From a virus (Duplodnaviria; Caudoviricetes), in the IMG/VR virus record IMGVR_UViG_3300009168_000011, positions 1 to 60,720 of that record: a DNA stretch of 60,720 nt. One strand, given 5' to 3'. The translations under genes and the position numbers were made by a program. Under the pieces are notes generated by a model that saw nothing but the letters and a program-made list of their open reading frames with translations, was not told the origin of the DNA and did not search any database. The number at the start of each line of letters is the position of its first letter. Within the stretch, counting starts at the first letter, position 1. Positions 52,704 to 55,347 of the stretch are shown here, one piece after another.

Positions 52704-52997
52704 ATGAGTGACATCGACGATCACCTGACCAACGAGGTTAACGACATGCTTACCCAGCTGCGTGCTGCGCAGGACAATGCGCCGCCCGTCGATGCGCTGG
52801 TCAACGCTGTCGGCTTGGCGCTCGAACGCAAGAACCAACTGATCGCAATCCTTGCCGAGGCGGTGATGTCCGGTGACTGCACGTGCTCCGGCTGCGCGCA
52901 GATGCGCGAGATCGTCAGTAACGAATTGGAAATCCGGGTGGTGCATATCAGCCTCGACCCGGAGACCCTTGCCAAGTGCTTGAATACGGTACAGTAA
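52704..52997 (+). CDS. hypothetical protein with CxCxxC
   Basis: TTGCAC-N16-TAACGT just upstream of ATG 52704. Confidence 0.6.
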   Translation: MSDIDDHLTNEVNDMLTQLRAAQDNAPPVDALVNAVGLALERKNQLIAILAEAVMSGDCTCSGCAQMREIVSNELEIRVVHISLDPETLAKCLNTVQ

Positions 52998-53079
52998 CCA
53001 CGAATTAATTTAAGGCTTGCCTTGTCACGCAGGTTACACTAGAAGGTGTCCATCAGTTCAACTCAATGGGGGTAAATCA

Positions 53080-54033
53080 ATGCACCGCTTCTACACCACC
53101 GTCGCCCTAGCCGCGCTCGTACTCGGAGCGCCTGCCTTGGCGCAGGACACGCTGACCTCGACGTCCGGCTCGGGTGCCGAGGCCAACTCGGGCAGCATCA
53201 GCGGAGCAAGCTCCGACAACAACGCGACCAACAACAACGCGGGCATCGGCTCCAGCTACAACGAGAACACCAGCAATTCGAGCAGCGGTGCGATCAGCGG
53301 ATCGGCATCCGAGAGTTCGTCCAACTCCAACGGCAACATCCAAGGTCAGGATCAGGGGCAGGCGCAGTCGGCCAACAACACGCAGGGCCAGAACCAGAGC
53401 GCCTCATCCAATCAGGGTCAGGACCAAGGCCAGATGCAGTCGCAGGACCAGTCCCTCGCCAACGCTAACGAGCAGGGTGTCACCGTCAACCAGACGTGGA
53501 ACACCAAGAACCGCAGGCAGACCGAAGTCAGGACGAACAATGCAGTTCCTCTGGCTGCCTCCTCATCCTTCAGCAGCGACTACTGTGGCGGCACCGTGTC
53601 GGGCGGTGCGTCTATCGCTCCCATCGGCATCAGCGTCGGCGGCGGTGCACCCAAGTTCGACAAGTCCTGCCAGTCGCTGCGCCGGGCCGAGAAGTTCGGC
53701 ATGCTCGCTGCCAACTACCAGAACATGGGACAGCCTGCGATGGCGATGAAGGCCATGAGCCTGATGGCGTGGTCGATCTGCACCTCGGATAGCTCCGGTC
53801 CCGCCGCCGACAGGGCCACGGCCAGTGCCTGTGAGCAGATGCTCCTGCTTGGGCCGATGGCAGGCTCGACCACCGTCGCCCAGCCAGCGGCTGCGCCTGC
53901 ACCCGAGCCGCGTGTCGCTGATCGCAGCGGCAAGGTCACGCCCGAAGCAGCCTACCGCGCAGGCAGCACGGCCACGCAGGACAAGGTTGCGATTGCGCAG
54001 GCGAGCGCCCAAACTGTGCCGCAGGGTCGATAG
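53080..54033 (+). CDS. secreted Ser/Asn/Gln-rich protein with 4-Cys C-terminal domain
   Basis: Signal peptide MHRFYTTVALAALVLGAPALA; QGQDQGQ repeats; SDYCGG..D.SC. Confidence 0.8.
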   Translation: MHRFYTTVALAALVLGAPALAQDTLTSTSGSGAEANSGSISGASSDNNATNNNAGIGSSYNENTSNSSSGAISGSASESSSNSNGNIQGQDQGQAQSANNTQGQNQSASSNQGQDQGQMQSQDQSLANANEQGVTVNQTWNTKNRRQTEVRTNNAVPLAASSSFSSDYCGGTVSGGASIAPIGISVGGGAPKFDKSCQSLRRAEKFGMLAANYQNMGQPAMAMKAMSLMAWSICTSDSSGPAADRATASACEQMLLLGPMAGSTTVAQPAAAPAPEPRVADRSGKVTPEAAYRAGSTATQDKVAIAQASAQTVPQGR

Positions 54034-54067
54034 CCCTACCGGGGAAACCTACAAGGAGTTGAATGTC

Positions 54068-54535
54068 ATGGGAAAAGATAAGCGGTACGAAATCCAACTT
54101 CCGCTCGATGGCCGGAGCAAGCCGGTCGTCTACAAGGTGAGTGGCTCAGGCGTCGTCACCATCGAGAAGGTTGACGGCAAGAGCGCCGACACCCTGCCCG
54201 CACACGAGAGGGATCGCATCATCAAGGCGATCAAGGACGCGCCCCGTCCCGGCAACGAACTGCCGGAAGGCGAGGAAGGCAGCACCAAGCCGGGCAGCGA
54301 TGCCGGTCGTCCCGACCAGAGCCTGCCGGGCCGCGAAGGCAACGTCGATCCGGGCTACGGTAAGCCAGCCGGTGGGCGTCCCGATCAGGGCACGCCGGGC
54401 AACCCGAACCTGAACCCGAACCCGGACGTCGATGCCAACCCGGACCTGAGCCGCCCGGACAAGCCGGACCAGTCCTTGCCGGAAGGCGGCACGCCGGATC
54501 AGGAACTGCCGGAGGCACCCGAGCCGAAGGCGTAA
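54068..54535 (+). CDS. protein with PDQxLP repeats
   Basis: AAGGAG SD; RPGNELP, RPDQSLP, RPDQGTP, KPDQSLP, TPDQELP. Confidence 0.75.
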   Translation: MGKDKRYEIQLPLDGRSKPVVYKVSGSGVVTIEKVDGKSADTLPAHERDRIIKAIKDAPRPGNELPEGEEGSTKPGSDAGRPDQSLPGREGNVDPGYGKPAGGRPDQGTPGNPNLNPNPDVDANPDLSRPDKPDQSLPEGGTPDQELPEAPEPKA

Positions 54536-54541
54536 CGAAGC

Positions 54542-54692
54542 ACCCTGTGCAGGCAGGGTAATAACGGCTCGCCGGGGAGCCGAGCGCAGAAATCCCCGGC
54601 ACCTTTCACGGCGGAGCGATCCGTCCAGAACTTTCAGCGAGGATAAGGGGGGCCTCGCTGATCGTATTTCCCCCGGTCGATCCTTAGGGAGA
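54542..54692 (+). promoter_or_regulatory. structured leader with two possible pseudoknots
   Basis: Loop CCGGGGA pairs with TCCCCGG; loop GGGGG pairs with CCCCC next to the SD. Confidence 0.45.
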
Positions 54693-54698
54693 ATAAGC

Positions 54699-55091
54699 AT
54701 GAAGAAAATCTTTGGTCTCGTCGGTCTGCTCGCCACGGTTGCGCTTGCAACTCCGGCTCAGGCCGTCGACTTCGGCCTCGTCGTCGGTAGCGGCGCGTCG
54801 CAGTCCAACTCGACGGCGGTTGCCGGTTCGCAGGGTTCGAGCGCCTCGGCGGTGTTCGGCTTCACGACCCAGACCAGCCAGAGCTTGGCTGCTTCGGGCG
54901 GTGCGGCTCAGTCCATCATCAGCGGCAACGATCAGGCGTCGGCCTCGACCCACCAGTCCGAGACGCTGCAGGCTGGTTCGTCTGCGTCGTTCGGTCTGGC
55001 CGGGTCGCAGAACAGCAACCTCGCCTTGGGCGCTGGCTCGTCCAGTGCGTCGAACCAGCTGACCGGCATCTGGCTTTTCGTCCAGCCGTAA
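54699..55091 (+). CDS. small secreted Ser/Ala/Gly/Gln-rich protein, amyloid-like
   Basis: Signal peptide ending PAQA; mature part has no Lys/Arg and no internal Pro; ~22-27-aa pseudo-repeats. Confidence 0.8.
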   Translation: MKKIFGLVGLLATVALATPAQAVDFGLVVGSGASQSNSTAVAGSQGSSASAVFGFTTQTSQSLAASGGAAQSIISGNDQASASTHQSETLQAGSSASFGLAGSQNSNLALGAGSSSASNQLTGIWLFVQP

Positions 55092-55191
55092 TCGGCGTAC
55101 TCTAATAGCAGCGTGAGATACCCTCCCACGCTGACATCGGGGGGAGCAACGAAGCCACGCGTTGCTCCCCCTTGCTATGAGGAGCCTAGTC

Positions 55192-55347
55192 ATGACCCTT
55201 GGTTTGATCTTACTCGTCGTCGCCCTCGTCCTGTTCATCCTCGCTGCGTTCGGCGTGCCGAGAGGGACCACGGTAAACCTGCAAGCGCTTGGCCTCGCCT
55301 TCTGGGTGCTGGCCCTGATCGTCGGCGGAGTTGACATCGCTGTATGA
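55192..55347 (+). CDS. 51-aa two-helix membrane protein
   Basis: GAGGAG SD; two hydrophobic segments. Confidence 0.7.
   Translation: MTLGLILLVVALVLFILAAFGVPRGTTVNLQALGLAFWVLALIVGGVDIAV

Follow-up and report, generated by a model that had tools for sequence, protein, structure and literature searches.

In the window, the complete 60,720-bp virus record IMGVR_UViG_3300009168_000011 (Caudoviricetes), we identified two genes, gpB and gpD, which together with a new leader pseudoknot constitute a previously undescribed, phage-spread module of two genes for exported proteins. The two genes are obligately paired and under purifying selection, their products carry conserved export signals, the pair moves independently of its surroundings, and the loci have a leader structure in common. 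From sequence we infer a role of the two proteins in the cell envelope, and what is said below of their expression, localisation and phenotype is of the same kind. With a probability of about 0.45, gpB and gpD form a mobile module that exports two cooperating envelope proteins and remodels the envelope of the infected cell. Both genes lie in a block of five:

52704..52997, plus strand: gpA, 97 amino acids (aa), with a CxCxxC motif (by reading of the sequence) and no family match; a local passenger
53080..54033, plus strand: gpB, 317 aa, with a signal peptide
54068..54535, plus strand: gpC, 155 aa, without a signal peptide, Pro/Asp/Gln-rich, with three PDQxLP motifs and one PDQGTP (by reading)
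54699..55091, plus strand: gpD, 130 aa, with a signal peptide
55162..55347, plus strand: gpE, a small membrane protein with two hydrophobic helices (by reading); a local passenger

An earlier reading of this DNA (the original prediction) had proposed a five-gene cassette for a secreted functional amyloid or fibre, located between a tail-fibre-like gene and a DNA polymerase gene. The five co-oriented plus-strand open reading frames (ORFs) are present there as claimed, and the CxCxxC protein, the PDQxLP protein and the small two-helix membrane protein were all found by reading. The cassette, however, consists of two genes and not of five: gpB and gpD belong together, but gpA, gpC and gpE have no counterpart in any other locus (phmmer) and appear to be passengers of this one phage. 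None of the five block proteins matched Pfam, PHROG or NCBIfam above threshold. The insertion of gpC between gpB and gpD is found in the window only, and a spacer of 73-231 nt occupies this position in the other loci. There are 12 metagenomic homologues of gpC, and its similarity to the Pro-rich protein encoded downstream of gpD in locus L003 (7564-8019; E = 8e-7) is compositional only. Contig joints leading from gpB to gpD with 85% likeness (53513 to 54803 in X4; 53737 to 54828 in X5), in which the intervening part is not known, possibly come from carriers lacking gpC; they were not used. The start of gpE is more likely at 55192, behind AGGAG, and its stop overlaps the start of the polymerase gene.

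The viral loci were collected in two steps: a search with gpB gave two contigs with gpD directly downstream, and a profile search then led to 19 viral loci. When all ORFs were searched with hmmsearch, gpD was directly 3' of gpB in 17 of these, the remaining two (L017 and L028) being cut by contig ends. Thus, the co-occurrence in other phages that the original prediction had named as a check, by profile and neighbourhood search, was found for these two genes. The gpB profile also matched four bacterial loci, namely two in Novosphingobium, one in a metagenome-assembled genome (MAG) of Caenibius and one in an alphaproteobacterial MAG, and gpD adjoined gpB in all four (Sphingomonadales and relatives; a few soil bacteria). 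All-against-all clustering of the ORFs from 24 loci revealed no third common gene; the other ORF 'families' were antisense shadows of gpB and gpD or genes of a single phage lineage. We conclude that the two signal-peptide proteins are, as far as gene neighbourhood can tell, a true functional pair. The families are small. For gpB, 149 homologues were found at E = 0.001 or better among 8000 candidates scored, and gpD formed 23 clusters at 90% identity; at 50% identity, a set of 1.84 billion proteins yielded no more than 20 gpD representatives. Neither gene was detected in GenBank phages (blastn, tblastn) or in PLSDB plasmids (tblastn).

The N-termini of gpB and gpD read as a K/R-rich start followed by a hydrophobic core of 10-13 residues and an A-x-A site, and the positions around the site are invariant or nearly so in both families (A21 and Q22 in gpB; A17, P19, A20 and A22 in gpD). 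The originally predicted signal peptides are therefore borne out by reading and by family conservation, which are the basis of the assignment here in place of a prediction program. Both proteins thus carry the conserved mark of Sec-dependent export, a putative N-terminal signal peptide with a signal peptidase I site. Behind the signal peptide, gpB is composed of a conserved Ser-alternating segment, a Q/G/N-rich spacer that varies widely in length among homologues, a C-terminal domain (about 120 aa) whose conservation is strong and includes four invariant Cys, and a Pro/Ala tail; the four Cys would fit an oxidising compartment. Mature gpD is a Ser/Gly/Ala/Gln-rich protein of 108 aa with a hydrophobic, conserved C-terminus (GxWLFVQP). 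In an alignment of 26 gpD sequences, the mean column identity was 69% and 44 columns were invariant, and the conservation falls on alternate positions occupied by small residues, also in distant relatives. The mature regions had been described as polar and of low complexity; gpD, however, is too highly conserved to be loose low-complexity sequence, and gpB has its conserved four-Cys domain towards the C-terminus. Since amino-acid identity exceeds nucleotide identity between the window and locus L002 for both genes (gpB, 68% vs 58%; gpD, 70% vs 63%), and since the ratio of non-synonymous to synonymous substitution rates (dN/dS) is about 0.2-0.5, gpB and gpD are evidently real genes under purifying selection.

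The pair was found in at least nine different phage contexts. Its neighbours are a polymerase, a primase-helicase and a minus-strand tail fibre in the group of loci L025-L031, an exonuclease and a terminase in L015, and a polymerase together with a helicase in L023 and L024. In L002 the cassette (5989-7482) has a G+C content (GC) of 0.49 (gpB 0.48, gpD 0.57), compared with 0.37-0.44 in its flanks, which suggests a recent gain from a source of higher GC. L002 and L003 have promoter-like sites immediately ahead of gpB that match the consensus at 10 of 12 positions, and no such site was detected upstream of gpB in L023. Three phage loci have transfer RNA (tRNA) genes no more than a few kb away from the cassette (L015 5127-5198, L003 8841-8906, L002 11352-11422), and the window phage has none. 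The bacterial copies lie among unrelated housekeeping genes of the chromosome, with no phage genes within 8 kb. In three of the four bacterial loci, a gene of the GerE/LuxR family is directly upstream of the pair, whereas in L005 no regulator gene was found inside a 770-nt gap:

L004 7134-7493, minus strand: GerE/LuxR gene upstream of the bacterial pair
L007 7133-7546, minus strand: GerE/LuxR gene upstream of the bacterial pair
L006 7161-7853, plus strand: GerE/LuxR gene upstream of the bacterial pair

The two Novosphingobium regulators are short, closely alike 'solo' helix-turn-helix proteins transcribed divergently. Among 401 sampled genomes of the order to which the Novosphingobium carrier belongs, a strong gpD match was obtained in one, the carrier itself, and three further matches were marginal (E about 1e-3). 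In the gpB tree, which is unrooted and gives no direction of transfer, three sphingomonad copies group together in a single supported clade and the remaining bacterial copy stands apart, both among viral branches. The varied phage neighbours, the GC contrast in L002, the promoter-like sites and the bacterial placement with a regulator are the signature of an accessory module; we conclude that gpB and gpD are a self-contained mobile accessory ('moron') module carried by phages and kept by few bacteria. As far as the available portions of the literature on functional amyloid of Novosphingobium, on phage signal-peptide, moron and curli genes and on phage-encoded functional amyloids go, the family does not appear there.

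The second common property of the loci is a structure in the leader of gpD:

54634..54674, plus strand: H-type pseudoknot ahead of gpD; stem 1 is formed by 54634-54642 and 54653-54661, and the G-run in the loop (54647-54651) pairs with a C-run (54670-54674)

In the window, the pseudoknot ends 24 nt before the gpD ATG, just 5' of the Shine-Dalgarno sequence. The layout common to the spacers is a hairpin whose loop contains a G-run (usually GGGGC), with the exact complement (usually GCCCC) 6-15 nt past the hairpin, and in most loci this C-run is 12-24 nt before the gpD ATG. An alignment-free search found the pseudoknot in all 20 distinct gpB-gpD spacers with a mean score of 17.95, compared with 6.13 ± 1.55 (maximum, 9.8) for dinucleotide-shuffle sets. 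A score of at least 16.5 was reached by 16 of the 20 leaders and by 20 of 282 natural upstream regions of the same loci (7%), and a score of at least 19 by 9 leaders and 4 of the natural regions. Stem 1 is represented by 19 distinct sequences in the 20 loci and stem 2 by 13. The G-run and C-run of stem 2 are wholly exchanged for other complementary pairs in L002, L003, L015, L019 and L023, and double changes that preserve pairing separate close relatives as well (L025 from L026; three such changes between L030 and L031). We conclude that the leader is an H-type pseudoknot, both stems of which appear to be kept by compensatory change.

A covariance model (R1) built from a seed of ten leaders, which match by construction, added L020 as well as matches just upstream of gpB in four loci (E = 0.011 to 2.8); the alignment A11 made with it is not structurally consistent. 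The four additional matches are second copies of the pseudoknot:

L025 5746-5791: pseudoknot of the same type upstream of gpB, with downstream GCCCC
L026 5868-5914: the same
L027 5797-5841: the same
L031 5748-5793: the same

With the alignment-free search, the pseudoknot was detected upstream of gpB throughout the L025-L031 group (six loci, including L029 and L030), and therefore both genes carry the leader in this group. In other loci, a promoter-like site takes its place upstream of gpB. No Rfam family matched in the window or in 12 loci. In the nested minimum-energy fold of the window, the C-run pairs with the Shine-Dalgarno sequence instead of the hairpin loop, which suggests that, at this particular locus, the gpD leader may alternate between two states, with the ribosome site occluded in one and open in the other. 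Pseudoknots in the mRNA leaders of T4 gene 32, rpsO and the alpha operon are translational operators, and the gpD leader resembles them in its H-type fold and in its position immediately ahead of the ribosome-binding site. It differs from these operators in having no sequence relation to them and no Rfam match, and in that only the G-run/C-run pairing is conserved in its sequence, and this pairing co-varies.

Structured spacers on both sides of gpD had been noticed originally, and both were found. Upstream, the structure is the conserved pseudoknot, while the folding energy of the whole upstream spacer is ordinary (z = -1.0). Downstream, the spacer 55089-55195 folds at -47.7 kcal/mol, compared with -30.6 ± 3.7 for shuffled sequences (z = -4.63; 0 of 200 as good). 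The fold contains the following element, which was not called an intrinsic terminator under the T-run rule:

55109..55171, plus strand: two GC-rich hairpins after gpD (55109-55133 and about 55139-55172), without a T-tract

Structure prediction of the monomers, one of the checks suggested with the original prediction, gave an all-beta gpD and a helical hairpin in gpB, but the confidence was low. The AlphaFold2 model of gpD has five long strands at a mean predicted local distance difference test (pLDDT) score of 58. For gpB the mean pLDDT was 51 and most of the model is disordered; residues 22-190 are of low confidence, and the model is confident only in the hairpin of helices 195-215 and 219-234 (pLDDT about 90) and in the helix that follows. 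A fold search with the low-confidence gpD model in BFVD and PDB gave nothing at E = 0.001 or better, and its top rows were long-hairpin pore formers and CsgG at template-modelling (TM) scores of 0.15-0.38; the gpB model, likewise of low confidence, gave generic helical-hairpin matches only (best Z, 7.1). An outer-membrane beta-barrel was considered for gpD and rejected, as Tyr is absent, hydrophobic residues make up about 21% of the protein and both faces of the strands carry polar residues (by reading). A periodicity of about 22 residues in gpD (offsets 22, 45-47 and 67-69) is weak, with 1-3% of shuffled sequences being as good and hhalign E values from 1e-4 to 0.2. The predicted complex of gpB (22-262) with gpD (23-130) scored 0.00 in a run without controls, a result that weighs neither for nor against binding. 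By sequence, neither protein matched PDB. The single named assignment, DUF6322 (ESM Atlas, 0.91; otherwise unnamed clusters only), was unconfirmed by Pfam and was rejected. In agreement with the original prediction, the two proteins thus match no known globular family in Pfam, PHROG, NCBIfam or PDB.

The following mechanism would account for an envelope-remodelling module. Both proteins would leave the cytoplasm for the periplasm or envelope, where they would work together. gpD would be a small beta-rich subunit that associates with itself through faces of small residues (Gly/Ser/Ala) and of Gln/Asn/Thr, and the tight packing of sheet on sheet could give rise to a layer, a coat or a fibre. gpB would be a modular partner that anchors or organises gpD by means of its Ser-rich head, its variable Q/G/N spacer and a presumably disulphide-bonded C-terminal domain. 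The pseudoknot next to the ribosome-binding site of gpD would provide common regulation, and in bacteria the neighbouring LuxR-type regulator would switch the pair. Through the remodelled envelope, the phage might gain receptor masking, superinfection exclusion or the shielding of its progeny from debris.

Several observations weigh against this reading. The AlphaFold2 confidence is low for both proteins and no fold match was significant; the evidence for internal repeats in gpD is weak. gpB and gpD have no detectable homology to each other beyond their signal peptides: an hhalign match between the families (probability 93.5), which had made paralogy a candidate, was confined to the signal peptides, and after their removal the score was 13.9, within the range of 20 column shuffles (9.4-14.0). 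Since the profile match vanishes in this way, the two are not paralogues. In addition, an outer-membrane export channel does not accompany the pair in the 24 loci, and CsgG was present in only one of the four bacterial carrier genomes, at a distance of about 1.2 Mb, so gpB and gpD may simply stay in the periplasm. Finally, a muramidase gene 3' of gpD in 2 of the 19 viral loci and the membrane protein gpE of the window leave room for a role in lysis.

The original prediction compared the cassette with curli and Fap. In curli, csgBA encodes a secreted subunit and a nucleator, and csgD, the gene of a LuxR-type regulator, lies beside csgBA. The gpB-gpD module resembles this system in having two Sec-exported Gln/Asn/Ser/Gly-rich proteins side by side, with gpD being about the size of CsgA, and in the LuxR-family regulator next to its bacterial copies. 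Curlin repeats, CsgG/CsgF and subunit-nucleator paralogy were each looked for, and none was found. No curlin repeat (Curlin_rpt, PF07012) was detected in gpB or gpD (E up to 0.1), in 21 gpD relatives (E up to 1), or in a six-frame search of the whole phage genome, whereas the positive control was found in E. coli. CsgG and CsgF were absent from the complete phage genome and did not accompany the module in any of the 24 loci. Unlike curli, the module thus has no curlin repeats, CsgG, CsgE or CsgF and consists of proteins that are not paralogous; gpB has a Cys-bearing helical domain and a variable spacer, and the pair is mostly phage-borne. In the Fap system of Pseudomonas, which consists of the nucleator and subunit FapB/FapC with Gln/Asn/Ser/Gly-rich repeats and the channel FapF, the logic of a nucleator plus a subunit among secreted Gln/Asn/Ser/Gly-rich proteins is similar. 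The gpB-gpD module differs in lacking a third conserved gene, and so has no FapF-like barrel or FapD/E partner; neither gpB nor gpD matched a Pfam family, although no search was aimed at Fap profiles by name. The module does not belong to the curli family and is probably distinct from Fap, although its mode of action may be somewhat like that of a subunit with an organiser.

An extracellular functional amyloid, with gpD as the fibre subunit and gpB as a surface nucleator, exported without a channel or through one of the host, is in our view unlikely. It would explain why two Sec-exported Ser/Gln/Asn/Gly-rich proteins are encoded in one operon, and it is consistent with the predicted all-beta nature and weak periodicity of gpD and with the LuxR-type regulator beside the bacterial copies, in parallel to csgD. 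Against it stand the missing Curlin_rpt, CsgG and CsgF in the complete phage genome, the lack of any Pfam match for 21 gpD relatives, the presence of CsgG in only one of four carrier genomes, the lack of homology between gpB and gpD once the signal peptides are removed, the weakness of the repeat signal, and a low-confidence gpD model whose strands do not form a beta-solenoid. We put the amyloid nature forward as a possible hypothesis and not as a finding. The boldest version is a new, self-sufficient two-component system that, with no outer-membrane channel of its own, builds an amyloid- or silk-like, beta-rich coat or fibre in or on the envelope. It would spread among unrelated phages together with its promoter, be controlled by the pseudoknot and serve to wrap or aggregate infected cells; in our estimate it is just as unlikely.

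The amyloid idea is also favoured by curli-related clusters on record in phages. In the portion of the pelagimyophage report available (PMC7029224), such a cluster contains CsgF/CsgG homologues and is located in a variable region, with the replication module on one side and the structural module on the other. Small hypothetical proteins are suggested there as CsgA/CsgB equivalents, the function is left open and aggregation ('sibling capture') is proposed (PMC7029224). As far as this portion goes, the cluster is the closest precedent in print: like the gpB-gpD module it is phage-borne and lies between replication and structural modules, but it is defined by CsgF/CsgG, whereas our module has neither and its conserved genes encode the exported proteins (PMC7029224).

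The lack of an outer-membrane route would also suit periplasmic factors that exclude superinfecting phages or block injection, soluble or membrane-associated and non-polymeric. The carriers look lytic, with polymerase, primase or helicase genes nearby and the pair next to replication genes; the pair occurs rarely and patchily among bacteria (one of 401 sampled genomes), as is typical of accessory defence-like genes; and T-even and T5 phages have exported exclusion proteins. However, nothing ties gpB or gpD to a receptor or to injection machinery, the extreme conservation and alternating small residues of gpD and the variable spacer of gpB point to a structural and not an inhibitory role, and the bacterial copies have their own regulator; we regard this explanation as unlikely, if slightly less so than the amyloid. 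The known examples, Imm and Sp of T4 and Llp of T5, are likewise early-expressed, exported accessory proteins that alter the envelope of the infected cell, but each of these is a lone small membrane protein or lipoprotein unrelated in sequence to the pair, whereas gpB and gpD are obligately paired, beta-rich, of low hydrophobicity and without a lipobox.

A third possibility is a lysis accessory, in which periplasmic proteins breach the outer membrane, or time its breach, in place of spanins. A Pfam Muramidase gene is directly downstream of gpD in L002 and L019 (1.6e-34 and 1.5e-32), and gpE, a small two-helix membrane protein, matched Phage_holin_4_2 at E = 0.047 (14.7 bits vs a cut-off of 28.8) and DUF997 at E = 0.006 in Pfam, both under the cut-off. 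No endolysin, holin or spanin was recognised in the complete window genome (about 45 ORFs searched with Pfam or PHROGs; six-frame searches for Phage_lysozyme and SLT); a six-frame Muramidase search was uninformative, as its control was silent too. We keep the lysis explanation because of this lack of recognised lysis genes and because of the muramidase in 2 of the 19 loci, and we consider it very unlikely: the other loci have an exonuclease, terminase, polymerase, helicase or tail fibre as neighbour, and lone chromosomal copies with a regulator are ill-suited to a lethal function. In spanins of the Rz/Rz1 type, the i-spanin has an N-terminal anchor in the inner membrane and the o-spanin a lipobox Cys. 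Unlike these, neither gpB nor gpD has a lipobox or an uncleaved N-terminal anchor; both families have A-x-A sites with no Cys at or near the site (by reading), and no PHROG lysis family matched.

The gene order of the window bears on a fourth explanation, namely that gpB and gpD are ordinary virion or assembly proteins with hydrophobic N-termini:

20321-22135, minus strand: internal virion protein, structural gene
28321-29289, minus strand: major head, structural gene
33035-35353, minus strand: portal or adaptor, structural gene
49957-52617, minus strand: tail-fibre-like gene (phrog_34130, 2.6e-19; tail fibre phrog_6859, E = 0.001)
52662..52689, plus strand: sigma-70-like promoter candidate TTGAGA-16-TATCGT ahead of gpA, at the divergence from the tail-fibre-like gene; a 9/12 consensus match only
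55344-57353, plus strand: family A DNA polymerase (Pfam, 1.8e-41)

The structural genes, including the tail fibres, are on the minus strand. The block is the start of a plus-strand operon divergent from the tail-fibre-like gene, and the operon continues with the family A polymerase, an HslV-like peptidase and an exonuclease. The promoter search at the block found this one candidate, compared with a shuffle mean of 0.5, and the -10 hexamer of the candidate recurs ahead of gpB in L002. A virion role could draw on the tail-fibre gene that adjoins the block in the window and in the L025-L031 group. However, the pair is transcribed with the polymerase and divergently from the structural genes, both proteins begin with conserved, cleavable signal peptides, no structural family of PHROG matched, and the pair stands alone in bacterial chromosomes; because of these stand-alone copies beside a regulator, we regard a virion role as extremely improbable.

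The genome has direct terminal repeats and a GC of 0.59-0.68. Since the block gave no blastn match among GenBank phages (50,697 records) and the best identity of its polymerase was 29%, to that of Xanthomonas phage Xp15, the phage appears to be distant from all cultured phages. Metagenome contigs from four runs of other studies (sediment, groundwater, soil) gave fragmentary relatives and contain pieces of gpD, gpE and the polymerase start with 0-9 differences per 300-520 nt (X3 records 3 and 4; X5 record 21), and therefore this phage or very close relatives evidently recur across samples. Outside the block, an ORF of 3095 aa in the structural arm (5393-14680, minus strand), whose sole match is LPD23, a large polyvalent protein domain (sub-threshold, E = 2e-4), may encode a giant virion or ejected protein. 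In the early/middle region, beside several family-less ORFs, the gene at 41290-42534 (plus strand) encodes a DUF2201 putative metallopeptidase domain (6e-51) with a VWA-like domain (3e-21).

Accessory genes of phages that act on the envelope shape who infects whom, and few of them are understood outside model phages. The gpB-gpD module is compact and clearly bounded, occurs in at least nine phage backbones and in bacterial chromosomes, has no annotated relatives and brings its own RNA control element. If the two proteins build an envelope coat or fibre, this would give viruses a novel means of rebuilding the host surface; if they block superinfection, they would represent a new exclusion system. 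In either case, the leader pseudoknot is a candidate for a new class of cis-regulatory RNA.

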